Shown in pieces: positions 6,894 to 25,653 of a stretch of 29,334 nucleotides of DNA. The position numbers were made by a program, and so were the translations under genes. Source of the stretch: an uncultured Deferribacteres bacterium (lineage in GTDB: Bacteria; Zhuqueibacterota; Zhuqueibacteria; Zhuqueibacterales; Geothermadaptataceae); the NCBI GenBank assembly GCA_964014485.1, contig CAXHAT010000091.1, forward strand, positions 1-29,334, in the 5' to 3' direction. Each line of letters opens with the position of its first letter. Positions within the stretch are counted from its first letter, which is position 1. The notes under the pieces are model-generated. The model did not search any database, had not been told where the DNA came from, and saw only the letters and a program-made list of their open reading frames with translations.

Positions 6894-7220
6894 TCAGGCG
6901 TCATCGTTTTCACGAATTTGCCGGTCAATATCATCGCGATGGGAGCGAACGTAAGCCCAGGCGTTGGCTAAATCTTCGGCGCGCAGCGTTGGGTAACTCG
7001 CTAACAATTCGGCTTCGCTGCACCCCAAACGTTTTGCTTGTTCCAGCAGCCAAACTGGAATTCGGGTGCGAACAATTCGAGGCTCTCCGCCGCAAATGCC
7101 AAGCGTAGTTTCAATACCTGGAAAAGCATCACCCAAATCTGGAACAACCCATTGCAGCACTTGAGCTTTCTCAGCCCGAGAAAGTGTTGACAACGCCTCT
7201 TTAAATTCCTGTGTACTCAT
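6894..7220 (-). CDS. DUF433-domain antitoxin-like protein
   Basis: GICGGEPRIVRTRIPVW...LLASYPTLRAEDLANAWAY. Confidence 0.88.
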   Translation of the reverse strand: MSTQEFKEALSTLSRAEKAQVLQWVVPDLGDAFPGIETTLGICGGEPRIVRTRIPVWLLEQAKRLGCSEAELLASYPTLRAEDLANAWAYVRSHRDDIDRQIRENDDA

Positions 7221-7354: not shown

Positions 7355-7483
7355 TCAAATCTTCACGATTTTCCCATTCTTACTGCTCTGCAACAACAAA
7401 ACATAAGCGTCTTCGAGAGTCGGTTCGACGGCGCGGGGGGTGATTTCGGGGATTTCGGTTTCGCTGATGAAGCGCATTCGCAC
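7355..7483 (-). repeat. Diverged direct-repeat copy of the last 43 codons of the RND-ABC fusion gene (8230-8358)
   Basis: Ungapped, 114/129 nt identical by manual count. Translates VRMRFISETEIPEITPRAVEPTLEDAYVLLLQSSKNGKIVKI* versus VRMRFISETEVPEIAPRAVEPTLEDAYVLLLQSSKKGSVAKV*. Confidence 0.95.
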
Positions 7484-8229: not shown

Positions 8230-11200
8230 TCAAACTTTCGCAACGCTCCCTTTCTTACTGCTCTGTAACAACAAAACATAAGCGTCTTCCAGGGTCGGTT
8301 CGACGGCGCGGGGGGCGATTTCGGGGACTTCGGTTTCGCTGATGAAGCGCATCCGTACTTCGTTTTCCACTTTGCTGTGTTGGACGATGTTGAGCTTATG
8401 CCGCCAATTCGGGAAATCCGCTTCCGGCACTTTTGCTTCGAAAACCTTGCCTTGCGCGCGTTTTTGCATTGACTCCGGCGAACCGCGATAGATGACTTGA
8501 CCGCCGTTGAGCACTGCCAGATCGTTGCACGTGCTCGAAATGTCTTCCACCACGTGTGTGCTGAAAATGACGATGCGCTCTTTTGCCAATTCCGCCAGCA
8601 GGTTGCGGAAACGAATGCGTTCGCGCGGGTCGAGACCGGCGGTCGGCTCGTCCACGACGATGATTTGCGGCAAGTTCAGAAGAGTTTGCGCAATGCCGAC
8701 GCGCTGCTTCATGCCGCCGGAGAATGTTTTCACCTTGTCGTCCCGCCGTTCCCACAAACCGACGCTTTCGATGAGTTTATCGATCAATTCGCGCCGCGCA
8801 TCTTCTTCATAAATGCCGTTGATGATCGAATGATAATTCAAATATTCACGCGGGGTCATGTTTTCGTAGAGCCCGAAATCCTGCGGCAGGTAGCCAATCG
8901 CGCCGTGGAACAGTTCTCGGTGCTCGTTTAAATCGCGCCCGTTAATTTTTATGCTGCCGCGATCCGCATCCAGCACGCCGACGATGGAACGCATGAGCGT
9001 CGTTTTTCCCGCGCCATTCGGGCCTAACAAGCCGAACATGCCTTGCCCGATCTCCAAATTAACGCCTTGCAAAGCCGTCACGGTCGGTTTCGGCGGGCGG
9101 ATGAGCGGAATCATCTTGACCAGCGCATAAATGCCGCGCTTGATTTTTTTCAAGCGACCTTCCGGCAATTCCGGGTTGATTTGGCCAGATTCAATGCGGC
9201 GTGACGTTCGTTTCAAAAGCGCAAAAATGATCGTAAAAACCAACATCGTGATCAAAAACGGCACGGACGAAGTTCGGACATAAAGGTATGCCAGCGCCGC
9301 CAAGCCGATCAAAAAACCGCCTCGTCGTACGAAATGAAGCGGATCCACCGTCTCGTCACGACGGTCTCCGTTGTGATCCCGCTTATTCGGGGGAAGCTCC
9401 GCAGCCTGTGGCGCTTGGACGAGGTTCATTTCTTCTGAATTCGCTTCATTGATGGGCTCCGCCTTCTTTTTGCCAAAAAATAAAAACCGTCGTTTTGCGC
9501 GCCGATTTTTCACTTTTGGCTCTGCTTCCGATTTGCGTTTGAAAAACAAAAACCGCCGCTTTTTCTCACGAACTTTTTTAACGCGCGGCTTTGGCGGTTT
9601 GCCGAACATGAAGCGCCAACGGTAGTACAACTCACGTGCGGAAACGACCCAAACGACCGTGCCTATGGTCAGCCAAAAGAGCCAAAATCGACTTTCAAAG
9701 AAGAAATGCAGATAAATAAGCAACGCGCCGATCACCAATGTCCAGATCGTCTCATCCTGCAATTGCCGCTTTGTCCAGGGCAATTGATTTTCGAGATCAA
9801 GCGCGCCAAAACGCCGATCTTGCTTGTGCCACTCGCGCGCGAATCTTTTTGGCGCGCCATAAATTTTGGTAAGGTTTGAAATTCTGATTTGCAGGCTGCC
9901 TTTTAAAACAGCGGCTTTTTCGGCTCGCAGCGTAAAAAACTGTTTCACGCTATACCACAATCCCAGCACAATGAACCAGGTCGGCAGCGTGATAACCGAG
10001 GTCCACAGCCAGCTTTCAAAACGAATATGGAACGAATAAACAAGCCAACCAGAAACTGCCGTGCAGACCGCCAGACCGAGCCAGCCAATTTTCAGCAACC
10101 ATTCGCGCGTCTGCTCCAACGCGACGTAAAGCACGGGGATGAAAACAAGGGTGGAAAACGCCGAAACCGTCAGTCCGCCGAGCACGACAATGGCGAATGG
10201 CGGCCAGAGTTCGAACTCAGTGCCTTGTTTGAAAGCCAGCGGTAAAACACCGAGAATCGTCGTCGCCGAGGTCATCAAAATTGGACGGACGCGGTTTTGA
10301 GAGGCGACCATCACCGCACGCTGCCAGCGGAAGTTACGCCGGTTGCGCAAAATCGCGATGCGGTCGAGCAAAATTATGCCGTTGTTGACGACGATGCCAA
10401 GCAAAACGATAAGACCGAGCAACGCCATCGGCGCGCCTTCGCCGAGAGAAAGCGGCGTGCCGGTGAGCGTAAGCGCGAAAAGTGCGCCGATAATCGCGGT
10501 TGGGATTGTACCCAAAATTACGAACGGGCTGAACAACGATTCAAATTGCGCCGCCAGGAACATGAAGATCAAAATCAAGCCAATGGCGAGCATCCAGTAA
10601 TAGACCGTTTGTGTGTTTTCTTCTTCAATTTTTTCAAGCGTGAATCCGCGCGGCATGCGAATTTCGCTCATCAAAATTTCGATCTGTGTTTCGGCGGTTT
10701 CAACCCGTTGTTTTGACGTTTCCGCTTCCGAAGTAAATCGATAGCTGATTTTGACCTCGCGCGACTGGTTGTAGCGTACGATATTTCCCGGCCCCTCATC
10801 CCGCCGCACTGTTGCAACCTCGCGGATCGGCACGAGCTGCCCGGCGCTATTCATGACCTTCGTGTTTTCCAAATCCTGAACCGTACGTTCTTCTACATCT
10901 CGAAGCTGCATTTGGATATTCGTATCATCGCCGCCGCTATAGAAAGGCGTGGCGGCTTGAGCGCCTTCCGCGCGCGTGCCCCAGATTGCCGTCATGATTT
11001 GCTGCATGCTCAAGCCCCAAATCGCCAAGCGCAGCCTGTCGCCGCGAATTTGAATTTCCGGCGTGCCTTCGCGCAATTCCGAGCGTACGGAGCGCGGATC
11101 GACGTCTTCGATTGTTCGCAAAGTTTGAACGATTTGCGTGCTGAGCGTTCGCAAAACATTCACGTCATGGCCGCGCAGACGGAGCCCTTTTTCCGTGCTG

Positions 11201-13158
11201 AACAATCCCCCGGCATCTCCTCCCCCGCGTCCGCCCCCTCCGCCGCCGCGATTCGGAGGCTCGAACGACAATTCTACGCTGCGGTTTCGTCTTTGAATGT
11301 CATCGATTTTTTCTTTTACGGCTTCAATATTCAGTTGCTGCGTGCGCTTGTCCGGCTCAACAAAATTGACGGCAATGAAAGCTTCCTCAGTTTGCACGCG
11401 CGTACGCGCTTCTTTAATATCCGGGATTTGGTTGATTTCTTCCTCAAATCGGCGGGTAAGTTCGTCCGTGTAATCCAGGGTCGAGCCTTTGGCCATGGTG
11501 AGATAAACGTCAACGCGGTCGGGCGGCGGCGAGGATGATTGTTGCAAAATAAACGTCGCGCCGATCACCAGACTCAAGAGCAAAAAAACGGCTACGAGCG
11601 AGACCGTGCGAATACGGTGGCGCATGCAGGACTTGAGAAACAAACGGTAAATTTCGAGAATACGACCAGCTTCAAACTGCCGAAAAGATTGCGCGCCCAG
11701 AGTCAGGCTTGCAAGCAAGGGCACAATCGTGAGCGCAACAAACAGCGAAGCAAGTAGCGGAAAAATGACGGCGAGGGCCAATTCGCGCACAAACAACTGT
11801 GCGTCGCTTTGTACGAACAGAACTGGCAGGAAAACTAAAATCGTCGTGCCGGTGGAGGCGAAAATTGAGCGGCTGACTTCGACCGTACCGTCGAGCGTCG
11901 CTTCGCGAACTGATTTTCCGCGCTGGTAGTGTGTGAAAATGTTCTCCATCACGACAATGCCGTTATCCACGAGCATGCCGATGGCCAACGCCAGCCCGCA
12001 GAGAGAGACAATGTTGATGGAAAGATTCCATGCGTACATAAAGTTGGCGGTGATGAGCAGGCTGACCGGAATCGCGATCATCAGAATCGTGACGAACCGA
12101 AAATTTTTGAGAAAAAGAAACAACACAATAAGCGCTAGAAACGCGCCGGTCACTGCCAGCGATTTTACCCGATCAATGGCGTCGGAAATGAGCTGCGCTT
12201 GGCTGATGTTAACGACCAATTCCAGATCCTCACGCGCCAATTCTTCGTTGAGTGCGTCGATCTGCTCCTGCGCCGCGTTGGCGACCTTGATCATGTTGCT
12301 CTGGTTGTCTTTCTGGATGAAAATGCCAACGCTCGATTTGCCGTTGATGCGGAAATATTCGGTCTTTTCTTCCTCGCCGTAACCGACTTTGGCTACGTCC
12401 GAGAGACGAATCGGGCCATTCGCATCAACAACCAAATCCGCTAACGTACGAATATCATCAACGCGCCCAATCAGGTTCACGTCGAGAATGCGTCCGGCGG
12501 TGATGACTTGCCCCAAATGTTCCGGCTGGCGATGAAACTGGTTGACAACCTGCTGAACGCGCGTGACGGGAATCCCCATCGCTTCGCACTTGTCTTCATC
12601 AATCTCCACGCCAATGTTTTGCCGCTCGCCGCCGCCGACATTGACGTTCACAATGCCGTCGACTTGTTCCAAGCGCAGCTTCACGCGGCGCTCCGCTATC
12701 TCCCTCAGGTCATTCAAAGGCCGGTCGCCGCGAATGCTAATTTGCATGAGAAATGTGGAAAAATCACTAGTGTCGAAGCGGTTGACGGCGACGCGCGAGT
12801 TCTGCGGCAATTGCGGCTCCAGAGCGGTCATCTTTTGCTGCAATTTCAGGATGGCGAATTTCATATCCACCCCGGGGTCGAAGGAAACCTTGGTGCTGAA
12901 AAAGCCGGGATTGACGGTCGTCTCCAAGTCCTTCACGCCTTCCAACGCCGCCAATTCCGCTTCCACGGGAATCGCCAATTGTCGCTCCACTTCCTCCGGC
13001 GCCGCGCCGTTCATCCCCGCGCTGACAAAAACTTCCGGAAAGATCAACTCCGGCAGCAATTGCACCGCCAGGCGATCCCAGGAAAAATACCCCAACATGC
13101 ACACGCCCGAGGCGAACATGAGCATCGTGACCGGTCTTTTTAGAGCAAGTTTTGTCAT
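8230..13158 (-). CDS. AcrB-family RND permease fused to extra TM helices and a C-terminal ABC ATPase domain
   Basis: Roughly aa 1-1015 form an RND (GMLVDNGIVVMEN, RVRPILMTSATTILGVLPLA, VLGGLTVS). The C-terminus carries GPNGAGKTT, GYLPQ, FSGGMKQR, VVDEPTAGLDP and STH. Single uninterrupted 1642-aa frame. Confidence 0.93.
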   Translation of the reverse strand: MTKLALKRPVTMLMFASGVCMLGYFSWDRLAVQLLPELIFPEVFVSAGMNGAAPEEVERQLAIPVEAELAALEGVKDLETTVNPGFFSTKVSFDPGVDMKFAILKLQQKMTALEPQLPQNSRVAVNRFDTSDFSTFLMQISIRGDRPLNDLREIAERRVKLRLEQVDGIVNVNVGGGERQNIGVEIDEDKCEAMGIPVTRVQQVVNQFHRQPEHLGQVITAGRILDVNLIGRVDDIRTLADLVVDANGPIRLSDVAKVGYGEEEKTEYFRINGKSSVGIFIQKDNQSNMIKVANAAQEQIDALNEELAREDLELVVNISQAQLISDAIDRVKSLAVTGAFLALIVLFLFLKNFRFVTILMIAIPVSLLITANFMYAWNLSINIVSLCGLALAIGMLVDNGIVVMENIFTHYQRGKSVREATLDGTVEVSRSIFASTGTTILVFLPVLFVQSDAQLFVRELALAVIFPLLASLFVALTIVPLLASLTLGAQSFRQFEAGRILEIYRLFLKSCMRHRIRTVSLVAVFLLLSLVIGATFILQQSSSPPPDRVDVYLTMAKGSTLDYTDELTRRFEEEINQIPDIKEARTRVQTEEAFIAVNFVEPDKRTQQLNIEAVKEKIDDIQRRNRSVELSFEPPNRGGGGGGRGGGDAGGLFSTEKGLRLRGHDVNVLRTLSTQIVQTLRTIEDVDPRSVRSELREGTPEIQIRGDRLRLAIWGLSMQQIMTAIWGTRAEGAQAATPFYSGGDDTNIQMQLRDVEERTVQDLENTKVMNSAGQLVPIREVATVRRDEGPGNIVRYNQSREVKISYRFTSEAETSKQRVETAETQIEILMSEIRMPRGFTLEKIEEENTQTVYYWMLAIGLILIFMFLAAQFESLFSPFVILGTIPTAIIGALFALTLTGTPLSLGEGAPMALLGLIVLLGIVVNNGIILLDRIAILRNRRNFRWQRAVMVASQNRVRPILMTSATTILGVLPLAFKQGTEFELWPPFAIVVLGGLTVSAFSTLVFIPVLYVALEQTREWLLKIGWLGLAVCTAVSGWLVYSFHIRFESWLWTSVITLPTWFIVLGLWYSVKQFFTLRAEKAAVLKGSLQIRISNLTKIYGAPKRFAREWHKQDRRFGALDLENQLPWTKRQLQDETIWTLVIGALLIYLHFFFESRFWLFWLTIGTVVWVVSARELYYRWRFMFGKPPKPRVKKVREKKRRFLFFKRKSEAEPKVKNRRAKRRFLFFGKKKAEPINEANSEEMNLVQAPQAAELPPNKRDHNGDRRDETVDPLHFVRRGGFLIGLAALAYLYVRTSSVPFLITMLVFTIIFALLKRTSRRIESGQINPELPEGRLKKIKRGIYALVKMIPLIRPPKPTVTALQGVNLEIGQGMFGLLGPNGAGKTTLMRSIVGVLDADRGSIKINGRDLNEHRELFHGAIGYLPQDFGLYENMTPREYLNYHSIINGIYEEDARRELIDKLIESVGLWERRDDKVKTFSGGMKQRVGIAQTLLNLPQIIVVDEPTAGLDPRERIRFRNLLAELAKERIVIFSTHVVEDISSTCNDLAVLNGGQVIYRGSPESMQKRAQGKVFEAKVPEADFPNWRHKLNIVQHSKVENEVRMRFISETEVPEIAPRAVEPTLEDAYVLLLQSSKKGSVAKV

Positions 13159-13169
13159 TTTCTCACCTT

Positions 13170-13220
13170 CTCGTCGCTACGGTCTCCGTCGCGACGCATA
13201 CTTGGACGCTCTGCATCCAA
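13170..13220. repeat. REP-like double-hairpin palindrome
   Basis: CGTCGCtACGG-TCT-CCGTcGCGACG, then CATAC, then TTGGAcGC-TCT-GCaTCCAA. Confidence 0.7.
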
Positions 13221-13228
13221 TCAAGCAT

Positions 13229-14068
13229 TTATTTTTCGAAATCTACCTTTCGCGTAGATTCATTGTCGCTCCAAAGTCCTTCAAATTGATTGCGATAGAA
13301 CAGAAAGTGCTCTTGCGAATTTCCCTTTGCTTCAAAGAAAAGAATACGTCGTTCGGTCTGGGGCGTTTTCAGGTAGACTGGAAATACCCCTAACGATATA
13401 ACGCCGCTGGGCTTGTGCCCATCGACCATGATCAGGCTATTCGGAGGGAGCCACTTTGTCACTTTCAATTCAAAGTTAATTTTACGTCCGGAGAATTTTT
13501 CTGTAAAATTAAAACAACGATTTATTGTTTTCTTGATATCGACAATAATTTCTTTATTTCTTGAGTTTTCATGGACTACTCTCGCGGCATCACTTTCGGG
13601 ATCAAGAATCAATAAACGGATATTGCAGCCTTCTTCGATTTTTTTGTACAGGAACCCATCGTAATAAGCAAACAAGTAACTGGCTGATAAAGCAAGAATA
13701 TCAATCGTCGATGCCTTTTTGGCAATTTCCGCGAGTTCCGGTCTGTCTTCGAATTTCAGCAGGATAGACGATTTCGATGCTCCATAAATTCTATGCGGCA
13801 GTTCTTCAAGCTGTCTTTTTGATTCTGTCAGATTGTCACTTATTTCCTGCAAGCTGGATTTCAGGCGCTCGCTCGTTCTTCGCGCTTCGATGAGACCGTA
13901 GATGAGAAGCGCTAACGCCGCAAGCACGATTTCAAAAAGCGCATCTTGACTAACGACACCGAACACATCCGCCACCAATACCGCAATGGCAACGGCCAGG
14001 ATCAGATATAATTCAATGCTCTTGCGGTTTTTGAAGTCGGTCTTTACATTACGAAAAAAGCTGCTCAA
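13229..14068 (-). CDS. 2TM + coiled-coil + DUF5919/PLD-like domain protein (start uncertain; ORF extends to 14134)
   Basis: Two hydrophobic helices, a heptad-like linker, then IDILALS...GCNIRLLILDPES...SLIMVD...YRNQFEGLW. No HxK motif. AT-rich relative to the flanks. Confidence 0.7.
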   Translation of the reverse strand: MSSFFRNVKTDFKNRKSIELYLILAVAIAVLVADVFGVVSQDALFEIVLAALALLIYGLIEARRTSERLKSSLQEISDNLTESKRQLEELPHRIYGASKSSILLKFEDRPELAEIAKKASTIDILALSASYLFAYYDGFLYKKIEEGCNIRLLILDPESDAARVVHENSRNKEIIVDIKKTINRCFNFTEKFSGRKINFELKVTKWLPPNSLIMVDGHKPSGVISLGVFPVYLKTPQTERRILFFEAKGNSQEHFLFYRNQFEGLWSDNESTRKVDFEK

Positions 14069-14127
14069 TGCTTTTTGCTCACAAATATAATTCAGTTTTC
14101 GTTGTATAAAGAGAAGGATTTTGAAAA

Positions 14128-14307
14128 ATGACAACCAAAGAAAAAATCCAGCAAGAACTCGACGAGCTTCCAGACGAGCTTCTCGAAAAGGTACACCAGT
14201 ATCTCACCGCTCTTAAAAAAAAGCCCGGTAAGCGTAAAAAAATTAAAACTTACAAGTTAGGCGGGCGATTCGACAATCTCGATATTCGCAGACAAGCTTA
14301 TGAATAA
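14128..14307 (+). CDS. Small antitoxin (DUF2281/VapB-like), missed by the ORF track
   Basis: MTTKEKIQQELDELPDELLEKVHQYLTALKKKPGKRKKIKTYKLGGRFDNLDIRRQAYE* (59 aa). AAGGA RBS; overlaps the PIN gene start. Confidence 0.8.
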   Translation: MTTKEKIQQELDELPDELLEKVHQYLTALKKKPGKRKKIKTYKLGGRFDNLDIRRQAYE

Positions 14308-14707
14308 TGTACTCATCGACACAAACGTTCTCGTTTACAGCACCGATGAAGATTCACGCTTCCATGAAGAAGCACAAAACATTCTGTTCGAATCAGATTT
14401 CGAACTCATAACGACAATCAAAAACATTTCAGAATTTCTTGCTGTTGTGACCAAGGGAAAAGCCCCTGCGTTGTCAGTCAATGATGCACTTTCGATTGTA
14501 ACCGAGTTTCAAAACCAGATGATCATTCTCTACCCGGATGCTGATTCTTTCGCTCAATTCCAGCAACTGCTGCGCAAATACAAGCCTAGAGGCTTGAAAG
14601 TTCATGACTTTGAAATTGCGGCGATTGCATTGGCGAACGGGATAGACAAAATTTCGACTTTTAACAAAAAAGACTTCACCAATATTGAAGAGATCATTTT
14701 GGTTTGA
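14300..14707 (+). CDS. vapC: PIN-domain (VapC-family) toxin
   Basis: VLIDTNVLVY...SEFLAVVT...HDFEIAAIALANG...TFNKKDF. Confidence 0.9.
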   Translation: MNNVLIDTNVLVYSTDEDSRFHEEAQNILFESDFELITTIKNISEFLAVVTKGKAPALSVNDALSIVTEFQNQMIILYPDADSFAQFQQLLRKYKPRGLKVHDFEIAAIALANGIDKISTFNKKDFTNIEEIILV

Positions 14708-14806
14708 ATTAAAGCCCGTTTTGTAACAACGGAAACTGTCATCACGAGACGGGAAAAAGCCGTGTTTCACCATCAAACGCTGACCAGATAATTCTTATCC
14801 CCTGAC

Positions 14807-15151
14807 TTAATCTTCTACTATCTCTCCGAGTCGATCAACCAATGCATTCAGGTCATTCTCAACAACTGACCAGACGATTTGATAATCGACGCCAAAATAG
14901 TCGTGTACAAGTCTGTTTCGAAAGCCTCGAATTCTCCTCCATTCGATCTCTGAGTGTTCGATTCTAAAATCAGGATCGATGCGGTTGGCTGCCTCGCCAA
15001 TTATTTCGAAATTTCTGATGACAGCGTCGACAGTTTTATCATCTGCGATAAACGATTCATAATCGAAACCTTCGGTGTAGCGTTGGATCTTCCTGGCTGA
15101 ATCCAGCATATCCCCCAAGAGCAAAAAGTCATCTCTTCTTCTCTCAGACAT
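14807..15151 (-). CDS. HEPN (DUF86/HepT-like) ribonuclease toxin
   Basis: DAVIRNFEIIGEAA and the RX4HXY motif RNRLVHDY. Start overlaps the MNT stop. Confidence 0.92.
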   Translation of the reverse strand: MSERRRDDFLLLGDMLDSARKIQRYTEGFDYESFIADDKTVDAVIRNFEIIGEAANRIDPDFRIEHSEIEWRRIRGFRNRLVHDYFGVDYQIVWSVVENDLNALVDRLGEIVED

Positions 15152-15434
15152 AGACGAGTTCCGGTTCGACGACCTCAAAATACTTGTCTTTTATTCCATT
15201 TCTCGAAACGAGGTCGACTTTCATCCTCATCAGTTCTTCCAACTCATCAGCAAGATCGATAAATCGAATACCGATATTGTCCGAAAATTCGACGAGCAAG
15301 TCCAGATCGCTGTCAGCGTCCTGTTCATCTCGAGCGAATGAGCCAAAAACCGCGAGTGATTTTATTGGATAATTCTTGAAAAGATGTGATTTGTGCCGTT
15401 TAAGCTCGAAGGTAATTTCAGCTAAATTGTTCAT
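15144..15434 (-). CDS. Minimal nucleotidyltransferase (MntA-like) antitoxin
   Basis: FGSFARDEQDADSDLDLLVEF (GSX10DXD) and KVDLV. Confidence 0.92.
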   Translation of the reverse strand: MNNLAEITFELKRHKSHLFKNYPIKSLAVFGSFARDEQDADSDLDLLVEFSDNIGIRFIDLADELEELMRMKVDLVSRNGIKDKYFEVVEPELVYV

Positions 15435-15478
15435 AACTATGACCAAACTAAATTGATTGTTAAAGAAGGATTCGAAAT

Positions 15479-18400
15479 CTATGGATTTCTTCGCAACCGA
15501 TCAATCAAATCATAAACCGTTGGGATGACGATGAGCGTGAGCAGCGTAGAGGTAACGAGTCCGCCGATCACGGCGATGGCCATTGGGGCGCGCAGTCGGG
15601 CGCCTTCGCCGAGGCCGATGGTGAGCGGCAAAAGCGCCAGAATCGTCGTGGCGCTGGTCATCAAAATTGGGCGCAGACGGCGTTTGGCCGCCTGTATGAC
15701 TGCTTCTTTCCGCGCTATGCCTTGCGCACGCAATCGTGTGATGTAATCCACCAAGACTATCGAGTCGTTCGCCGCAATGCCTGCCAGCATGATGACACCG
15801 ATGTAGGCCATGATGCTCAACGGTTCGCCGACAATCAGAAACGCGTAAACAACGCCAACTCCGGCTAACGGCAGCGTGAGCAGAATCGTAAACGGGTGCA
15901 AAAAGCTTTCGAACAATGAAGCGAGCACCATGTAAACGAGAACGATTGAAAGCAACAGGGCGAATTTTAATTGATCGAAAGATTCCTGCCGTTCCGCCTC
16001 TTCGCCGCCAAAACTCACTTCGTAACCGGACGGCAACGGCACTTGCGTCAAGCGAGGTTCAATACTTGAAATGACGCTGCTCAATTTAACGTCTTTGTCG
16101 AGCTGTGCGGTGACGTGGGTAACGCGTGACTGGTTGTGCCGCTGAATTTCTTTCGGGCCTTCATCCTTCTCAAGACGGACCAGATCGCGCAAGCGCAGGA
16201 TTGCGCCGTCAGGAGACGCGATGACGAGATTTTCCAATTCCATCATCGTGGCTTTTGGGAAAGCAACGCGAATATTCCGGTCGTCACCTTCGGTGTAAAA
16301 ACTAGACACAACATTCCCCGCCAAACGGTCGCGAACTTTCGCGCCGATTTGCTCAACGTCCAAGCCAAAACTTGCCGCCAACAAACGATCAACTTTCAAA
16401 TTGATTTCCGGCCTGCCGATTTCAAAACTAGTTTCGATGGTGTTCAAACCATTGATTGGCTCCAACGATTCGGCAATGCGCTCGCTGAGCTGCTGAAGAA
16501 TGGTAAAATCATCACCCTTGATTTCGACGATGACCGGCGGGCCGCCCGTGCCGATCGTGGCTTGCAAGCTCGTCTCACGGATGCGAAAACTCACTTCCAT
16601 GCCCGGCAAATCAAGGCCGGGACGCAAGAGTCGAATCGCATCGGACGGCGGCAGACCTTGCTCGCCGCTGCGCAAGTTAATGGTTACGCGCGCCCGTGAT
16701 TCACTGTTCGAAGCGCTTGAAGTAAACAAATCCTGTGATGAGCTGACATTGACGGTGGCAAATTGGTTTTCAAGTGCTTCGCCGATAATCTGTCCGATTT
16801 GGTACTCGACCTCGGCAAGCACGTCAGAAGATTTTTCCAGAGGCGTGCCCGGCGGCAATGTGAGATCAAGCTGCACCTGGTTTTCCGCGCTGCGGGGTAC
16901 AAATTCATTGCCGACGACAGGCAAAAGAAACGCGGCGGAACCTAGCATCAAAATCGCGGCAATCACCACGGTTTTGGGGTGATTCACCGCCCAGTTGAGA
17001 AATTTGTTGTACACCTGAATGTTCAAATGCTGCTTTTCCAACGCCGTCGTTTTTTTGGCGAATACGCGCGAAGCCAGCGGCGGGATCAGCAAAAAAGCGA
17101 CGAGTAAAGATGACAACAGCGAAAACGCGACGACCCACGCTTGCTCCTTAAAAAGCTCGGCGGCAACGCCTTGAACATAAACGATGGGCAGGAAAACAAT
17201 AATTGTCGTCAACGTGGAAGCGACGATGGCGACGCCGACTTCACTTGTGCCCTTAATGGCCGCTTCTCCAGCTTCTTCGCCGGACTGCCTTCTTCGGAAA
17301 ATGTTTTCGATGACGACAATCGCGTTATCGACCAACATTCCGGCGCCAAGAGCCAAGCCGCCAAGAGTCATCACGTTGAGCGTGTATTCCTGAAAAAACA
17401 TCAGGCTGAAAGTCGCCATGATTGAGATCGGAATCGCGAGGCTGATGATCACTGTGACGCCAATGTTTCGCAGAAAAACGTAAAGTACGAGCACCGCGAG
17501 AATAACTCCAATCACCGCCGTGGTTTTCACTTCACCTATGGCGGAATCGATGAAGTCCGCCTGGTTGTAAATCGTAACGAACTGAACGCCGCCCAACTCA
17601 CTTTCCATACCGCCAACAGCTTCCGCGAGCTGTCCGGCCACGCGAACGGTGTTGTCTTGCGCTTCTTTGTAGACATAGAGCCCGACGCTCTCTCGACCGT
17701 TGAAGCGCACAACCTCGGTGCGTTCTTCCGGCGCATAGCTGATCTTCGACACGTCGCGCAAGTAGATCGGCACTTTTTCCGGCGTGAATTGGCCGCCGGC
17801 CTGTTGCGCGCCAACAGAACTCGTGTCTCCGTTCGTCGCCTTGTCCTGATAGCCGACGACGGTTGATGCAACTTCGTCGATGTCCTGATATTTCCCCACG
17901 CCTTTGATCAGAAAGGAAGTATTGTCTTGCACCAGATTGCCGCCGGAAGCGTCGGCGTTTGATTGTTGGATTTGTGTGTTAATGGTCGCCGGGGTGAGAT
18001 TGAATGCGTTGAGAAGATATTCGTCAAGCTCGACGCGCACTTCCCGTTTGAAGCCGCCGTAGACTTCCACGCGCGCCACGCCGTCGAGGCGTTCCAGGCT
18101 GCGTTTCAAAACGTTTTCAGCGATGCGGCGCATTTCGTCGAGATCACGGTCACGGTCGCTTTGCAGCGCATAAATTGCAATCGGCTCTTCTTGCGGATCA
18201 TAGCGGGCGGTGAGAACGCGGTCAACGTCGGGGTCGGATTCAAAACCGGCGACTTTTTTCTGTACATCGAGCAGGGCAAAATCCATGTCGGCGCCCCAAC
18301 TAAACGTGACCGTTGTCAACACGCGGCCCGGGCTGCAAACGGAGCGGACGTCCACCACGCGGCTCACGGTGCCGAGCTCTCCTTCCAATTGGCGCGCAAA

Positions 18401-18586
18401 ACGCTGCTCCATTTCTTGCGGGGCTCGGTCGCCGGACTGTAATTCGACCACAATGCGCGGGTTGTAAATCGAAGGCAGCAGATCCGTGCCGAGCTTGTCG
18501 AAAGAAATGTACCCGAGAATTGCAATGGCCGCCATAATCATCGCAATAGTAACGGGATATTTGACGGAAAATTTGGGGAGATTCAT
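15479..18586 (-). CDS. AcrB/AcrD/AcrF-family RND permease
   Basis: 1035 aa with GMLVDNAIVVIEN, RRLRPILMTSATTILALLPL and PMAIAVIGGL. Confidence 0.95.
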   Translation of the reverse strand: MNLPKFSVKYPVTIAMIMAAIAILGYISFDKLGTDLLPSIYNPRIVVELQSGDRAPQEMEQRFARQLEGELGTVSRVVDVRSVCSPGRVLTTVTFSWGADMDFALLDVQKKVAGFESDPDVDRVLTARYDPQEEPIAIYALQSDRDRDLDEMRRIAENVLKRSLERLDGVARVEVYGGFKREVRVELDEYLLNAFNLTPATINTQIQQSNADASGGNLVQDNTSFLIKGVGKYQDIDEVASTVVGYQDKATNGDTSSVGAQQAGGQFTPEKVPIYLRDVSKISYAPEERTEVVRFNGRESVGLYVYKEAQDNTVRVAGQLAEAVGGMESELGGVQFVTIYNQADFIDSAIGEVKTTAVIGVILAVLVLYVFLRNIGVTVIISLAIPISIMATFSLMFFQEYTLNVMTLGGLALGAGMLVDNAIVVIENIFRRRQSGEEAGEAAIKGTSEVGVAIVASTLTTIIVFLPIVYVQGVAAELFKEQAWVVAFSLLSSLLVAFLLIPPLASRVFAKKTTALEKQHLNIQVYNKFLNWAVNHPKTVVIAAILMLGSAAFLLPVVGNEFVPRSAENQVQLDLTLPPGTPLEKSSDVLAEVEYQIGQIIGEALENQFATVNVSSSQDLFTSSASNSESRARVTINLRSGEQGLPPSDAIRLLRPGLDLPGMEVSFRIRETSLQATIGTGGPPVIVEIKGDDFTILQQLSERIAESLEPINGLNTIETSFEIGRPEINLKVDRLLAASFGLDVEQIGAKVRDRLAGNVVSSFYTEGDDRNIRVAFPKATMMELENLVIASPDGAILRLRDLVRLEKDEGPKEIQRHNQSRVTHVTAQLDKDVKLSSVISSIEPRLTQVPLPSGYEVSFGGEEAERQESFDQLKFALLLSIVLVYMVLASLFESFLHPFTILLTLPLAGVGVVYAFLIVGEPLSIMAYIGVIMLAGIAANDSIVLVDYITRLRAQGIARKEAVIQAAKRRLRPILMTSATTILALLPLTIGLGEGARLRAPMAIAVIGGLVTSTLLTLIVIPTVYDLIDRLRRNP

Positions 18587-21390: not shown

Positions 21391-24300
21391 TTATTGGACA
21401 TACTCCCAACGAATTGCGTCCGCAATCATCCATCCGTCACCTTCATCGGATAGTTCGACAAGGGCGGCTTCATCCTTTTCAAACTGAAATCTGCCAAGAT
21501 AAATCCACCCGTCGGCGGTCTCGATAAATTTCATTTCTACCGGCTGGCGACCTTTCGAAGTGACAATGTTTATCTTAAAAGATTTCGACAAATTACTCGC
21601 CCACCACCGGGTTCTCCGATCACTGGTGCTGACCGGCATGTGAAAACTGAGGTCATAAAAGCCGCTGCGGGGCGGCTTAACTTCCCAGTGCGCCGGAAAA
21701 TCACCTTCGCCGCCGCGTTTATACCGCCAGCCAAAATAATATTTTCCATACGCCCGCGGGCTCATATTTTCCCACCAGGATTTGCCTTTTTGCGCAGGCC
21801 GTAAATATTTGGACGTTTCACCGACAGGCAGAAAAAAGCCGTCATCACGATCATCGGCATAAAAAACGGTTGAATCAGAATTTGAGTTCACGGCGAAAAT
21901 AGTGTCCATTGCGACGCCCCGCTTCGTGCGCGTGGGAATGGTAAGCGCTTGACTGATGCTGCCGCGATTACGGGAAAAATCGGGCAGTACGCGGATTTGC
22001 CGCGGACTTTCCTTCACGACAAAATGCACTTCTTTCTCTTCGTAGCTGCCCAGGCGGATGTTTTTCTTGATTTTATCATTCTTCGTATCGCAAAAAACCT
22101 GAACAAATCCCGCTCCTTTCTCGCCGTTTTGCACGCGCGCTTTCACAAGGTAGGCAATTTGCATTTTGCCCGTGTCCAGCTTTTCCACCTCGGTGCTGGT
22201 AATGCGATAACCCGGAAAAGTCGTTTCCCTAAACCACTGCTCATAAAAGTCGCCGAGCGGCGCTTCCGAATGCCGGTTCATGATCGCAAAAAAATCTTCC
22301 GGCGTGACTTTTTTGTACTTGAAATTTGTCACGACTTCGTCTAACGCACGCCTGAAATTTTTCCCGTCATCGCCCATCGTTTTTTTGAGAATTTCAAACA
22401 CTGCGGAACCTTTGATATCCAAACGCCCGCGATAAAGGTTGCCGTCTTTTTCGGGCAGAAAATCTGAGAGCGGCGTTTCTTCAAGACTGACGAGAACCGA
22501 ATCATATTCCGTCCGATAATAGCGCCTGAACCGCCAATGAATCCAGTCTCCTTCGCCGGAGCGAAGCATTTCAAGCGTGCTCAAATTGACGTTCCAACGA
22601 TCCGGGTAAAATTTGTCTTTAAGTGATTTTTCAACATTCTCGAACAAATGCAGCTCGAGTGCTCGACCCAAGACGTGATCAGTGAGGTCAATCTGGTGAT
22701 GAAAGTAGTTTTTGGTCGGAGACGACATATTAAAGAACCAATTGTCGTTCCACTCGCTCCTCCCCCTCCCGATCGTGTAACGCAGGGCTTGCTCAACGAA
22801 CACGTCGCGCTTTAGCCTGGCGTCCGAATCATCGCGCCGACGGCGTTGTGCGCGCTTCTTTTTACGCTCGAGAAGTTTTTCAAAATAGCGCCCGGCGAGA
22901 TCGCGCTCATCAATCATGATGATTTGCGGCTGCTCAAACGGGCTCAGGTAGCCCGAACGCGTCAGGAAAATTTGCGTTTGCATCGGCGTTTCGACGTACG
23001 CCAATTTTGGGTAAGGGTAAGCCTGGCCCGTGGTATTCTCATAACCATCGAGAATCTCTTCAATAACTTGAAAACACGTGTCGGCAACGTCCGAAAAAAT
23101 ATCGAGGCCGCGCAAGTGGTTCTTGCGATAATAAAGCTCGAGCGTTGTTTGTTTAAAATTTCGCGCCAGCTTTGCGTATTCGCCGATATTGAGTGAAAAA
23201 GCGGGCAACGGCGTCTCAACTTCGAAAATCGCGGTTCGCGCGCCATTTGTCGTCGAGTCGGAGGCGCGAAAACCTTGCGTGATCGCGGTCAATTTTCTCG
23301 GCGTTTTAATTTCAAATCGCGCGGTGGCAAAATTCTTGGGTTTTGGCGAATTGAAGTCATAACCTCCCGCTGTTCCCGGCGCCGGATACCAACCGGCTTC
23401 AGCCGGCAACAAGGCAAAATCTTTGGTGAGGTACGCCCAAAATTCGCCAATATTCCAAGGGCCGTCCTTTTTGTCAATCAAGCCCTTTTCATCGGGTAAA
23501 AAATCAAGTGCAAAAGCGTCGGCGTCGATTGTCCCGGCATAGCTTAGACTAATTTTTGTTTTCTCTCCCGCTTCAAGCGGCGCATCTTTCAGATTGACTA
23601 ACAGGAGTTGATGCTCTTGTTTAAACGAAATTTCCGAACCGCCAACTTTTTCAACGTTTTGCACTTTCAAACCGCCGTTCAAGGCAAAAACGAGTGTGTC
23701 GAGCGGCGTCTGGCCTGGGTTCACAACACTCATTTCAAGCTCGACGGCCAAAGGCGCGCCTTGCCTCCCAAATGAAATCTTAAAATCGTAATGCTCGACA
23801 TCGGCCAACGGCGCATTGACCCAGTGATCCTGCGCATCTATCGCCGCGGACTTTTTGCTTTCAACAGTCTGGTGCTCACTGATAACATCGAAACAAATGT
23901 ATGCGGCGCCAGCGAGAAAAAGCACGGCAAACGCTTGCGACATTCTTTGGGATAAATTCGATTGTCTTAAACGAGGATAGAGAATGATGGAAAAAGCAAG
24001 GAGTGCAAAAGCCAACAGCGTATAAAACAGCCTTTGTTTGAGAATATGAGAAATATCGCCAAAGCCGACCAGATCGCTGGCGAAGAGCGGCAGCCAAAAC
24101 GTGCCGTAATCGAACATGCCAAGAAAATCCGCCTGGAAATAGAACAACACCCCGCCCCAGAATGCCAGCGAAAGCAAAATCGCGATGGATTGCACGCGAA
24201 ACAAGCTGACGAAGAAGAACATCAGCGAGGTCATGAATAAAATGGAAGGGATGGTCGCAATCGTATAATATTGCAGGGTGGGAACGAGATCGAAGCCTAA

Positions 24301-24732
24301 ATCAAGAATGAGCGCCTTGATGGTTCGCCCAATAAGCGCGATAAAAACCAGCGCAACATTGAGCACGAGAAGCGCGCTGACGACGCCAAAATATTTCCCA
24401 ATCACCCAATTCGCTGTTGTCATCGGGCGGGAAAGCATGACTTGATCGAGCCGCGCTTTTTCTTCGGCTTTGCGAAAGTCGCCGGCAACGAAAATGATCA
24501 GCAATGCCTGAGCGTAGCTAAAAAAGTAGATGACAAGGAACGATTCCGTGCCTTCTAGGAAGAATTCTCCCGGCGGCGTACCGTCAAAAAACGTTGCGAG
24601 CGTCGTCCCGGTCAAAATCATTAATGCCGCGAAAATTCCGGCTCCGCCTAATATCCAAAATTTTGGCATCCGGTACAGCATCCGCCGCTCGTAAGAGGCG
24701 ATGGTGAGAATGTACTTTAGAGCTTTTAGCAT
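21391..24732 (-). CDS. ABC-2-type permease fused to a degenerate M1 aminopeptidase-like domain and a C-terminal golvesin/xanthan-lyase-like beta domain
   Basis: N-terminal TMs with SRPMTTANWVIGKYFG. M1-like segments EHYD, GWYP, YPYPKLAYVETP, KGSAVFEILKKTMG and FYEQWF, with no HEXXH. C-terminal GWIYLGRFQF...VELSDEG...IADAIRW. Confidence 0.8.
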   Translation of the reverse strand: MLKALKYILTIASYERRMLYRMPKFWILGGAGIFAALMILTGTTLATFFDGTPPGEFFLEGTESFLVIYFFSYAQALLIIFVAGDFRKAEEKARLDQVMLSRPMTTANWVIGKYFGVVSALLVLNVALVFIALIGRTIKALILDLGFDLVPTLQYYTIATIPSILFMTSLMFFFVSLFRVQSIAILLSLAFWGGVLFYFQADFLGMFDYGTFWLPLFASDLVGFGDISHILKQRLFYTLLAFALLAFSIILYPRLRQSNLSQRMSQAFAVLFLAGAAYICFDVISEHQTVESKKSAAIDAQDHWVNAPLADVEHYDFKISFGRQGAPLAVELEMSVVNPGQTPLDTLVFALNGGLKVQNVEKVGGSEISFKQEHQLLLVNLKDAPLEAGEKTKISLSYAGTIDADAFALDFLPDEKGLIDKKDGPWNIGEFWAYLTKDFALLPAEAGWYPAPGTAGGYDFNSPKPKNFATARFEIKTPRKLTAITQGFRASDSTTNGARTAIFEVETPLPAFSLNIGEYAKLARNFKQTTLELYYRKNHLRGLDIFSDVADTCFQVIEEILDGYENTTGQAYPYPKLAYVETPMQTQIFLTRSGYLSPFEQPQIIMIDERDLAGRYFEKLLERKKKRAQRRRRDDSDARLKRDVFVEQALRYTIGRGRSEWNDNWFFNMSSPTKNYFHHQIDLTDHVLGRALELHLFENVEKSLKDKFYPDRWNVNLSTLEMLRSGEGDWIHWRFRRYYRTEYDSVLVSLEETPLSDFLPEKDGNLYRGRLDIKGSAVFEILKKTMGDDGKNFRRALDEVVTNFKYKKVTPEDFFAIMNRHSEAPLGDFYEQWFRETTFPGYRITSTEVEKLDTGKMQIAYLVKARVQNGEKGAGFVQVFCDTKNDKIKKNIRLGSYEEKEVHFVVKESPRQIRVLPDFSRNRGSISQALTIPTRTKRGVAMDTIFAVNSNSDSTVFYADDRDDGFFLPVGETSKYLRPAQKGKSWWENMSPRAYGKYYFGWRYKRGGEGDFPAHWEVKPPRSGFYDLSFHMPVSTSDRRTRWWASNLSKSFKINIVTSKGRQPVEMKFIETADGWIYLGRFQFEKDEAALVELSDEGDGWMIADAIRWEYVQ

Positions 24733-24744
24733 TTTAGCGCTGCG

Positions 24745-25653
24745 TCATTGGTTAGCCGCCAATTCTTCTTCATCTAGTTTCTCTCCCACAACAGATTCCA
24801 TAAAATACATGTATGCGTCTTCCAGGTTCGGTGCGGCGGGCTCAAATTGAAAATCACCGTCCGGTTCGCCCACGACGCGGAGCAAAAGCTTTTTACCGTC
24901 CGGGATCGTGGAAATCACCTGAACTCTTCGCGTAATCTTCGAAAAATCGCTTTCGTCAATGCGGACGTGCCAGACTTTGTCTTCCGCCTCATCAATAAGC
25001 TTATGCGGCGCGCCGTTAAAAACAACGCTGCCCTTGGCGATAACGGCCAAATCTTCACAAGTGCTCGAAATATCGCCGACAATGTGCGTGCTGAGAATGA
25101 TGATCTTATCGCGGCTGATGTCCGCCAGCAAATTCCGAAATCGGATGCGTTCTTCCGGATCGAGTCCTGTCGTCGGTTCGTCGACGATCAGCAGATCCGG
25201 CTCGCCAATCATCGCTTGCGCAATACCAAGCCTGCGCAGCATGCCGCCGGAGTAGGTTTTTGCTTTTCGGTCGCGAACTTGCGCCAGAGCAACGCTTTCA
25301 AGCGTTCTTAATACTGTCTCGCGGAGTTTTTTTCCTGAAAAGCCGTTGAGCTTCGCAATGTACGTTAAGAATTCAGCGCCGGTCAATTGCGGATAAACGC
25401 CAAAAAATTGCGGCAAATAACCAAGAGACGAACGAACGGCCTTGCGATGCTTCCGAATTTCCTTGCCGTTAAAATGAACGTCTCCGGAACTCGGTTCTTC
25501 AAGCGTCGCCAGGATTTTCATGAGGGTGCTTTTTCCTGCGCCGTTGGGTCCAAGAAGGCCAAACATTCCGGAATTTATGTTCAGGGTCAGGTCGTTCAGA
25601 GCACGAACGCCGCCGGGATAGACTTTAGAGAGAGCATGAATGTTGATTTCCAT
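24745..25653 (-). CDS. ABC transporter ATP-binding protein (ABC-2/CcmA-like)
   Basis: GPNGAGKST, GYLPQ, YSGGM, IVDEPTTGLDP, STH and PNLEDAY. Confidence 0.95.
   Translation of the reverse strand: MEINIHALSKVYPGGVRALNDLTLNINSGMFGLLGPNGAGKSTLMKILATLEEPSSGDVHFNGKEIRKHRKAVRSSLGYLPQFFGVYPQLTGAEFLTYIAKLNGFSGKKLRETVLRTLESVALAQVRDRKAKTYSGGMLRRLGIAQAMIGEPDLLIVDEPTTGLDPEERIRFRNLLADISRDKIIILSTHIVGDISSTCEDLAVIAKGSVVFNGAPHKLIDEAEDKVWHVRIDESDFSKITRRVQVISTIPDGKKLLLRVVGEPDGDFQFEPAAPNLEDAYMYFMESVVGEKLDEEELAANQ

Follow-up and report, generated by a model that had tools for sequence, protein, structure and literature searches.

An open reading frame at positions 8230 to 13158 (minus strand) of the window, the 29,334-nt stretch of DNA analysed here, encodes an RND permease with an ABC domain joined to its C-terminus, and raises the question of where this ABC domain begins. 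Few protein modules have been studied as thoroughly as the ABC domain. As a rule its first strand (beta1) runs on without interruption into the remainder of the domain, and the A-loop usually lies about 20-25 aa before Walker A. A preliminary description had proposed that in the fusion beta1 and the adenine-stacking tyrosine of the A-loop are separated from Walker A by a membrane domain. All the sequence strings that it quoted were found at the positions given, and the evidence presented below makes it probable that positions 9085-9894 hold beta1 and the A-loop of the fused ABC domain and, after them, 255 aa inserted into its beta1-beta2 loop.

Layout of the RND::ABC fusion

The fusion is a single unbroken frame of 1642 aa (ORF list and translation of the window), and its features, given here by residue and by window position, all lie on the minus strand. 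The chance that this frame is an assembly or frame artefact joining separate genes is negligible: the gene is split into two ORFs in one relative (locus L010), but the frame in the window is uninterrupted, related genomes carry open frames of about 1565-1630 aa, and among the matches listed all have both PF00873 and PF00005, with at least 111 exceeding 1500 aa, from independent assemblies and several phyla.

The ACR_tran family (Pfam PF00873) matches aa 1-1014 with 632.6 bits over model positions 1-1020/1021, and ABC_tran (PF00005) matches aa 1363-1507 with 108.5 bits against a cut-off of 25. The RND permease part (aa 1-1015; 10114..13158) is HAE-1-like and comprises 12 transmembrane helices, and its best solved relative is MdtB (9lyq_B, E 8.1e-73). 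It is followed by an extra hairpin, TM13-TM14 (aa 1019-1071; 9946..10104), seen both by hydropathy and in the AF2 model (helices at residues 11-32 and 35-71 of the model); the TM14 helix extends to aa 1086 and then runs into beta1. At the other end of the insert, the ABC domain from beta2 on (aa 1359-1642; 8233..9084) opens with the segment TVTALQGVNLEIGQGMFGLLGPNG, beginning at aa 1359 (nt 9084), and contains Walker A (GPNGAGKT, starting at aa 1379), the Q-loop, an SGG signature, Walker B with its Glu, the H-loop and a C-terminal domain. Its catalytic residues are invariant in 75 sequences (K370, Q411, S465-G467, D488-E489 and H520 in A1 numbering, to which 1015 is added to give protein numbering). 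This domain is of the DrrA/GldA/NosF type: its best family matches are GldA (176.4 bits) and DrrA (168.1 bits), both under the curated equivalog cut-offs of 402.6 and 312.45, the solved proteins closest to it in sequence are ABCA7, ABCA4 and NosF, and by fold it matches TM_1403 (4yer_B; Z 28.9, rmsd 3.5, 265 aligned).

The linker between the two parts (aa 1016-1360) gave 28 matches in an exhaustive HMMER search of 1.84 billion representatives, 10 of them full-length fusions, and an ESM Atlas search with the linker returned no usable match. A stand-alone linker protein was considered and rejected, since most of the short matches begin within RND sequence or lack a start Met and are therefore fragments. 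Three short matches (P0127, P0128 and P0137) start with a Met near the linker and could be split genes or miscalls.

The probable displaced beta1 strand and A-loop

The candidate strand and loop, LQIRISNLTKIYGAP, occupy aa 1089-1103 (9850..9894), with the tyrosine at aa 1100. The gap between the A-loop and beta2 (aa 1104-1358) is thus exactly 255 aa, and Tyr1100 lies 279 aa from Walker A, as compared with 23 aa in a free ABC ATPase of the same subfamily encoded in the window (24745..25653, minus strand), which has a contiguous beta1, is 42% identical to the fused NBD and was used as comparison copy. With a 12-column beta1/A-loop matrix made from 54 ABC ATPase segments of the same genome, aa 1090-1101 rank first in the fusion with 17.84 bits, the runner-up reaching 8.76; 26 of the 54 training segments are gap-free over the 12 columns, and these average 17.81 bits. 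In 3000 non-ABC ORFs, two of 1,000,250 positions scored at least 17.84 bits, which for a protein as long as the fusion corresponds to about 0.003 expected matches. Family models point to the same displacement: among the full-length ATPase models of NCBIfam, the GldA model matches the fusion from model position 16 only and the DrrA model from 6 only, while the free ATPase is matched from position 1 or 2 by these models and from position 1 by the GldA model. Judged by its sequence, aa 1089-1103 is a typical ABC beta1/A-loop, above what chance would give.

All 116 full-length homologues, which come from several phyla, retain the motif and the position of the insert, so that conservation of the segment, which the preliminary description had named as a check, came out in its favour. 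The best matrix match lies 191-289 aa upstream of Walker A in 110 of them, 105 of which have Tyr and five Phe, and the remaining six of the 116 have TLTK[IV]YG at the same place. Across 75 aligned sequences K1098 never varies, and both L1096 and Y1100 are conserved to at least 90%; Y1100 is also present in every member of a 14-sequence set to which the most divergent homologues belong. The displaced motif is as conserved as the catalytic motifs.

A second segment could in principle compete for the beta1 slot, namely the pre-NBD helix IKRGIYALVKMIP (aa 1337-1349; 9112..9150), which precedes the core. If it did, NLTKIYG would be a relic, left over from an earlier domain boundary and no longer packing, and the domain would either lack beta1 or use aa 1337-1349 instead. 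BLASTP indeed puts beta1 of the free ATPase on aa 1343-1351 of the fusion, with a 6-residue gap just after, and Y1344 is 93% conserved, from which it follows that the local segment has some role. However, a relic would be expected to decay, as the distal motif has not in any homologue, and the local segment has a matrix score of -6.5 and is helical in the AF2 model. It was moreover present in both the AF2 and the docking runs, and the distal strand still took the slot. We therefore regard a relic as highly unlikely, and retain the distal segment as beta1.

Structure prediction agrees with this assignment. The AF2 model of aa 1016-1642 (pLDDT 88.5, pTM 0.80) has a strand at aa 1091-1100, and in structural alignments with VIA-align, whose output gives the first and last aligned residues only, 50 of the 50 rows listed start at model residue 71-76, corresponding to residue -1 to 5 of the solved NBDs. 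With MJ0796 (1l2t_A), 218 of 230 residues are aligned (rmsd 1.9, Z 26.4, model 75-547), more than the 203 available from beta2 onward. On this modelling basis, the register of the strand and the stacking of the tyrosine on adenine would be those of an ordinary beta1 and A-loop.

Two-chain docking of the distal segment gave 0.79, 0.78 and 0.78, the best control reaching 0.00, with a partner pLDDT of 53-54 and at least 84% of contacts in common between runs. The predicted interface joins aa 1088-1102 to aa 1358-1372, aa 1398-1408 and the Walker A helix, which places the segment between beta2 (aa 1360-1370) and the following strand (aa 1400-1405). The training of both predictors included solved ABC domains, so a canonical-looking beta1 may be put into its slot by recall, and the result indicates compatibility, not proof; the docking shows likeness to beta1 rather than binding by this copy. 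As far as prediction shows, packing of the segment into the NBD is thus favoured by both AF2 and docking, and the separation of beta1 and Tyr1100 from Walker A by a membrane-embedded insert, as first proposed, is borne out by motif statistics, conservation, AF2 with its structural alignments, and docking alike.

The same predictions bear on whether the strand completes its own domain or that of a neighbour. ABC domains work as dimers, the strand docks confidently when supplied as a chain of its own, and the membrane excursion is long enough for either arrangement, so that the distal strand might complete the ABC domain of the neighbouring protomer in trans and the insertion lock two fusion subunits together. 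In the AF2 monomer, however, the strand packs in cis (pTM 0.80), and no data call for a swap; such an exchange appears improbable, and completion in cis is the arrangement followed below.

The membrane insert and the probable partner permease

Directly after the A-loop comes a helix (aa 1104-1122; 9793..9849; AF2 helix at model residues 90-107) with the consensus GAPGRFRREW..RR, in which GAP belongs to the preceding A-loop part, and whose columns are 70-90% conserved in 111 sequences. Beyond this helix the insert holds two membrane hairpins with a K/R-rich loop between them. Its hydrophobic stretches lie at aa 1137-1154, 1158-1172, 1280-1294 and 1299-1315; the first two form TM15-TM16 (aa 1130-1184; 9607..9771; AF2 helices 115-138 and 142-169) and the last two TM17-TM18 (aa 1278-1323; 9190..9327; AF2 helices 266-281 and 284-308). 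By hydropathy the long loops contain 14, 32 and 12 K+R and the hairpin turns are only 3-6 aa long, AF2 giving turns of 3 residues in TM15-TM16 and 2 residues in TM17-TM18; K/R-rich long loops together with such short turns imply an even number of helices.

The central loop (aa 1173-1279) carries 32 K+R in 107 aa. Its variable, cytoplasmic portion (aa 1185-1277; 9328..9606) is expanded in this copy, its columns being gaps in most of 111 homologues, and AF2 assigns pLDDT below 50 to aa 1212-1256 and 1258-1267. Within the K/R-rich loop there is a pair of 21-nt direct repeats (9476-9496 and 9542-9562, 66-nt spacing); Tandem Repeats Finder reported no repeat in window positions 9000-10000. Comparison of the three hairpins with hhalign gave probabilities of 66-84% over 32-38 columns, values too weak for membrane helices, and no claim of a hairpin triplication is made.

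Taken together, the path of the chain may be described as follows. After the 12 RND helices it would pass through TM13-14, TM14 leading directly into beta1; it would then leave the domain by way of the conserved basic helix, enter the membrane twice (TM15-16 and TM17-18), re-enter the cytoplasm and form beta2, Walker A and the remaining parts of the domain. A hairpin leaves the chain on the side from which it entered, so beta1 and the core lie on the same side of the membrane, and beta1 is able to fill the place in the antiparallel sheet that lies between beta2 and the strand after it.

The preliminary description had also suggested that the insert may stand in for a missing second transmembrane domain (TMD). 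The four-helix insert and TM13-14 would then be the ABC unit's own TMD, and they do add up to six extra helices, the usual count for an ABC TMD, in a window where no permease gene follows the fusion. The genomic context speaks against this. A gene for a small 6-TM protein follows the fusion in four of the six loci examined (L002, L006, L008 and L010), and the genome studied here has such a permease on another contig (C44), with no ATPase beside it. Among 41 related genomes, 22 have both the fusion and the permease, one only the fusion, four only the permease and 14 neither; the permease is accordingly found in 22 of 23 fusion-bearing genomes, and in 15 of the 22 with both it adjoins the fusion on the same contig.

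The small permease matches Pfam ABC2_membrane_3 with E 7.6e-6 and 25.7 bits, under the cut-off of 31.6, and among relatives 16 of 41 match ABC2_membrane_3 and 9 of 41 ABC2_membrane_2. The top matches of its model are type-V ABC permeases only, including ABCG2 (Z 16.9, rmsd 4.5, 261 aligned) and NosY (Z 16.2, rmsd 3.4, 220 aligned), and BLASTP found no similarity between it and the N-terminal membrane part of a 1113-aa protein (E 8.3). With a dedicated ABC-2/type-V permease encoded downstream in relatives and on a separate contig here, the role of stand-in is not supported, and an ABC unit relying on its own extra helices has a very low probability. From gene neighbourhood and co-occurrence, the fused ATPase most likely works with the small ABC-2 permease normally encoded just downstream.

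Possible coupling to the pump and comparison with known systems

In the arrangement proposed here TM14, TM15 and TM18 would provide three anchors of the ATP site in the membrane, and the nucleotide state at the A-loop could be communicated to the six-helix bundle next to the RND transmembrane domain, or read out from it. Coupling of ATP binding to the RND part by the insert was the other possibility raised in the preliminary description. In its strongest form, which we consider rather unlikely, the insertion would be a transmission element in which TM14, TM15 and TM18 connect directly to the strand and loop clamping the adenine, ATP binding moving the six-helix bundle that leans on the RND part and so gating or driving the pump. 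If true, an RND protein with a reduced relay (VDN/VNN) would be ATP-gated or ATP-driven, and an ABC motor would be coupled to a membrane protein in a new way, without a coupling helix.

The relay residues themselves were considered as a mark of an ATP-driven fusion and set aside. The proton relay of AcrB is formed by D407, D408 and K940. At the corresponding sites the fusion has VDN in TM4 and VNN in TM10, as against VDD and KKN in MdtB; one Asp is left, and the TM4 Asp-Asp pair and TM10 Lys of a proton relay are absent. Similar residues are found in plain RND copies: the paralogue of the window, the upstream partner of the fusion (15479..18586, minus strand; identified by Pfam and 32% identical to the RND part of the fusion), has VDN in TM4, its TM10 being missed by the pattern used, the copies at L006 and L008 have VDN and VNN, and that at L010 VDN and VND. 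The reduced relay is thus a trait of the subfamily and no evidence by itself.

Whatever the mode of coupling, the family comprises well over a hundred proteins from several phyla in which four membrane helices run through the beta1-beta2 loop, beside the residue that holds adenine. Conservation of the four-helix insert at this site indicates that the loop tolerates a very large insertion, and the split domain would be a natural case of an ATP site tied to the membrane. The fusion belongs to an unstudied hybrid machine, an RND pump with a type-V ABC exporter, and its layout suggests mutants for a direct test of whether export is powered by ATP, the proton gradient or both.

A literature search, mostly at the level of abstracts, found no published description of a split ABC domain of this kind or of an RND::ABC fusion. 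Each part nevertheless has recognisable relatives. The fused ATPase differs from DrrA/GldA/NosF/ABCA-type ATPases in two respects, as these have a contiguous beta1 and no fusion to an RND permease; the type-V likeness extends to the partner permease, which has the type-V fold. MdtABC/MuxABC-type pumps have two permease paralogues, assembled in the MdtB2C heterotrimer. The window likewise holds two successive RND paralogues, accompanied by a single adaptor and a single outer-membrane factor, in the order OEP, MFP, RND, a 2.3-kb insert and the fusion; the plain RND gene directly adjoins the fusion at L006, L008 and L010, an arrangement not seen at L001, L002 and L004. At equivalog level the fusion matches MdtC best and the plain copy MdtB/MuxB, both far under the cut-offs. 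Unlike in those pumps, six additional helices and an ABC domain are attached to one of the paralogues, and the relay residues differ.

In half-transporters of the Sav1866/MsbA type (TMD-NBD), the last membrane helix leads into beta1. TM14 of the fusion similarly continues into the cytoplasm and directly into beta1. In the half-transporters the chain remains within the domain from beta1 on, whereas in the fusion it goes back to the membrane twice. The nearest parallel to an insertion at this site is in CFTR, where the regulatory insertion of NBD1 is placed between beta1 and beta2 and W401 is the A-loop residue; as in the fusion, an extra segment follows the A-loop aromatic and precedes beta2. 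The CFTR insertion spans aa 405-436 (PMC3458236, PMC9160490). It is a soluble, disordered segment of about 32 aa described as regulatory. The bacterial insert, which has no sequence relation to it, is about 200-255 aa long and contains four membrane helices arranged in two hairpins.

Layout and conservation of the split ABC domain

The RND::ABC fusion is encoded by a single open frame of 1642 aa (8230-13158, minus strand), with an RND permease part at aa 1-1014 (Pfam ACR_tran, 632.6 bits) and an ABC ATPase domain at aa 1363-1507 (Pfam ABC_tran, 108.5 bits, cut-off 25) that has the full set of catalytic motifs and shares 42% identity with the free ATPase, the separate ABC ATPase of the window (24745-25653, minus strand), in which the Tyr lies 23 aa before Walker A. 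The preliminary description had the first strand and A-loop of the fused domain parted from its core by a membrane insert, and this layout is borne out: positions 9085-9894 correspond to aa 1089-1358, the displaced piece LQIRISNLTKIYGAP (aa 1089-1103) and the resumption at TVTALQGV... (from aa 1359) are separated by exactly 255 aa, four hydrophobic stretches lie in between (aa 1137-1154, 1158-1172, 1280-1294 and 1299-1315), Walker A starts at aa 1379, and the free-ATPase sequence is as described.

A phmmer search with the free ATPase against the six-frame ORFs (at least 150 aa) of its own genome gave 61 matches, and a scoring matrix of 12 beta1/A-loop columns was derived from 54 aligned segments upstream of Walker A in own-genome ABC ATPases. 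Its top position in the fusion is aa 1090-1101, with 17.84 bits (mean of the 26 of 54 training segments that are gap-free in the 12 columns, 17.81 bits), the runner-up reaching 8.76. The best candidate for a local beta1, immediately before the ABC domain (aa 1344), has a score of -6.5. Among 3000 non-ABC ORFs, 2 of 1,000,250 positions score at least 17.84, a chance expectation of about 0.003 per fusion-sized protein. The full-length NCBIfam ATPase models agree with the matrix, since the alignment of GldA and DrrA with the fusion begins only at model positions 16 and 6, and that with the free ATPase at positions 1 and 2, respectively. The beta1/A-loop of the fused ABC domain is displaced.

Every match listed in a search with aa 1020-1642 carries both PF00873 and PF00005, at least 111 being longer than 1500 aa, with source names including KSB1, Calditrichota, Latescibacterota, Gemmatimonadota, Acidobacteriota and Fidelibacterota, and Walker A always follows the RND part at a distance of about 280-390 aa. 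In 111 aligned sequences the NLTKIYGAPGRFRREW columns are mostly 70-99% identical, level with the catalytic core, and most of the other sequences have a gap where the insert of the window copy has its K/R-rich middle. All of 75 sequences have K1098, and at least 90% of them keep L1096 and Y1100; a set of 14 sequences, with the most divergent homologues among them, likewise has the A-loop Tyr throughout. The top matrix position falls 191-289 aa before Walker A in 110 of 116 full-length proteins (A-loop aromatic Tyr in 105, Phe in 5), and the remaining six have TLTK[IV]YG at the same spot with a lower score. The expected conservation of the segment and of the insert position thus holds in 116/116 full-length homologues, and the insertion site is fixed across the fusion family. 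A linker-only search of 1.84 billion representatives gave 28 matches, none beyond fusions or apparent fusion fragments. Of 41 related genomes, 23 contain the linker, mostly as part of a frame of about 1565-1630 aa; among the shorter frames are some that have an internal stop or lie on short contigs.

The 289 aa of the window copy are the longest among the 110 measured. A 21-nt imperfect direct repeat (9476-9496 and 9542-9562, 66-nt spacing), encoding a doubled KRRFLFF in the K/R-rich loop, is a small internal duplication that contributes to this length. In the Calditrichota locus L010 (6815-11572) the fusion reads as two ORFs of 855 and 712 aa, with a break within the RND part for which a frameshift, a stop or a sequencing error may be responsible.

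Predicted structure and membrane topology

An AlphaFold2 model of aa 1016-1642, built with 74 homologues, has a mean pLDDT of 88.5 and a pTM of 0.80. It extends the TM14 helix to aa 1086 and predicts a 10-residue strand at aa 1091-1100 (block pLDDT 89-95), seven insert helices (aa 1105-1122, 1130-1153, 1157-1184, 1193-1211, 1281-1296, 1299-1323 and 1337-1349), pLDDT below 50 at aa 1212-1256 and 1258-1267, and beta2 at aa 1360-1370. The last of these helices is the local alternative for beta1, which the model thus gives as helix with no strand.

When the model was compared by VIA-align with the Foldseek top 1000 PDB chains, each of the 50 matches listed starts within residues 71-76 of the model and within residues -1 to 5 of the solved ABC ATPase, among them MJ0796 (1l2t_A; model 75-547, chain 1-230, 218 aligned, rmsd 1.9, Z 26.4) and LptB (4p33_A; model 74-618, chain 2-236, 230 aligned, rmsd 2.2, Z 26.9). 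Only 203 residues are available from beta2 to model residue 547, so the surplus aligned residues must derive from the distal strand. In a gap-free alignment of this strand, Tyr1100 would fall on what we take to be Y11 of MJ0796, Y13 of LptB and W13 of MalK.

Docking of aa 1075-1130 onto a separate chain of aa 1320-1642, each given as an alignment, scored 0.79, 0.78 and 0.78 (0.00 for the best of three controls) at a pass mark that, in calibration, 116/157 solved complexes and 2/215 mismatched pairs reached. This speaks for a fit as in solved domains rather than for binding in the cell, because a predictor may simply recognise the two halves of a familiar fold. The partner had a pLDDT of 53-54, and the runs had at least 84% of their contacts in common. 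The confident interface involves aa 1088-1102 of the partner and, on the domain side, aa 1358-1372 (beta2), aa 1398-1408 (the GSIKING strand) and residues of the Walker A helix, and would therefore set beta1 between its two neighbour strands. Packing of the displaced segment into the domain, which the preliminary description had left to structure prediction, is indicated concordantly by the modelled strand, the VIA-align starts and the docking, and at the level of models the structural reading of a split ABC domain is well supported.

Past RND TM12, six further hydrophobic helices form three hairpins with turns of just 3-6 aa, and the long loops contain 14 (aa 1072-1136), 32 (aa 1173-1279) and 12 (aa 1316-1358) Lys+Arg. 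By the positive-inside rule these loops are predicted to be cytoplasmic, which would place the displaced strand and the ABC core on the same side of the membrane; the insert is membrane-embedded and topologically neutral. When the profiles of the three extra hairpins (P0001 aa 1016-1087, 1125-1187 and 1273-1327) are compared with each other, probabilities are 66-84% across 32-38 columns, which hints weakly at an origin by repetition, such comparison being unreliable for membrane helices.

Gene neighbourhood and a cognate permease

Along the minus strand, the free ATPase is followed by a 1113-aa protein (21391-24732) with 6-7 helices in its N-terminal part, a weak match to M1 peptidases and a Golvesin_C domain at the C-terminus, an outer-membrane factor, a membrane-fusion adaptor, the plain (unfused) RND (15479-18586), about 2.3 kb of inserted genes (13159-15478; DUF5919, PIN) and the fusion. 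The Bacteroidales loci L006 and L008 and the Calditrichota locus L010 have the same order, but lack the 2.3-kb insert and end with a small permease gene. The 1113-aa protein also occurs at L002, L006, L008 and L010; no Pfam family matches its membrane part, and BLASTP shows no similarity between that part and the small permease. Region 13159-15478 holds a DUF5919 ORF (13229-14134), a PIN-domain ORF (14300-14707) and small ORFs, with GC down to 0.41-0.46, and resembles inserted material, as the RND genes are directly adjacent in L006, L008 and L010. The RND part of the fusion (10114-13158) has VDN in TM4 and VNN in TM10 (VDD and KKN in MdtB) and so lacks two residues of the classic proton relay, the second Asp and the Lys (AcrB numbering). 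The plain RND also has VDN in TM4, its copies reading VDN/VNN at L006 and L008 and VDN/VND at L010.

The 3' end of the fusion gene is duplicated as a 112-bp direct repeat (7372-7483 and 8247-8358, 93% identical), the downstream copy still coding ...MRFISETEIPEITPRAVEPTLEDAYVLLLQSSK, with a DUF433-like ORF and a partner between the copies and a second DUF433 ORF at 6894-7220; this resembles the insertion of a small cassette at the end of the gene, in the place that the ABC-2 permease gene occupies in relatives. Downstream of the fusion at L001 (8117-8752), a 212-aa ORF repeats the ABC domain from about its second third to its C-terminus, with 75% identity to the domain of the window, and is another partial duplication at the gene's 3' end.

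The proposal that the insert substitutes for a missing second TMD is not supported, as a separate type-V permease gene exists. A six-helix protein of 238-268 aa is encoded after the fusion at four of six loci (L002, L006, L008 and L010); L004 stops at the fusion and L001 has different genes there. The present genome encodes a homologue, 49% identical to that of L002, on another contig (C44:26005-26826; L036:4009-4827, minus strand). A GNAT acetyltransferase gene lies on one side of it and nrfA/nrfH-like cytochrome c genes on the other, and none of its neighbours encodes an ATPase. The protein matches only ABC-2 membrane families, below threshold (ABC2_membrane_3, E 7.6e-6); of 41 relatives, 16 match one and 9 the other of two ABC-2 families. 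In a Foldseek-independent search with its AlphaFold2 model (pLDDT 85.5), the top 17 matches are type-V ABC permeases, such as ABCG2 (Z 16.9, rmsd 4.5, 261 aligned) and NosY (Z 16.2, rmsd 3.4, 220 aligned), followed from rank 18 (Z below about 9) by Lpt permeases, one teichoic-acid exporter and unrelated helical proteins. Among 41 related genomes, 22 have fusion and permease, one the fusion alone, four the permease alone and 14 neither, which are bare counts, as related genomes are not independent. Three of the four permease-alone genomes are 59-83% complete, and in the fourth the permease match is spread over two open frames; among the 22 genomes having both, 15 have the two genes no more than a few kb apart on one contig. 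Neighbourhood, fold and co-occurrence together argue that a cognate TMD exists.

Possible mode of action and known precedents

In a working model, beta1 would pack in cis in the fused ABC domain, which would be anchored to the membrane via TM14, TM15 and TM18 and would hydrolyse ATP as a dimer, jointly with the small type-V permease, while the six-helix bundle would keep the ABC unit against the RND subunit. We speculate that an MdtB2C-like trimer of two fusion subunits and one plain RND would provide the two ABC domains of the dimer.

In the titles and abstract openings covered by our literature search, no paper was found that describes the RND-ABC fusion or membrane helices in the beta1-beta2 loop of an ABC domain. 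The nearest parallel to an insertion at this position is the regulatory insertion of CFTR NBD1, which covers aa 405-436 (PMC3458236, PMC9160490). This insertion sits between beta1 and beta2 and is short, soluble and disordered, whereas the insert of the fusion comprises 255 aa with membrane helices.
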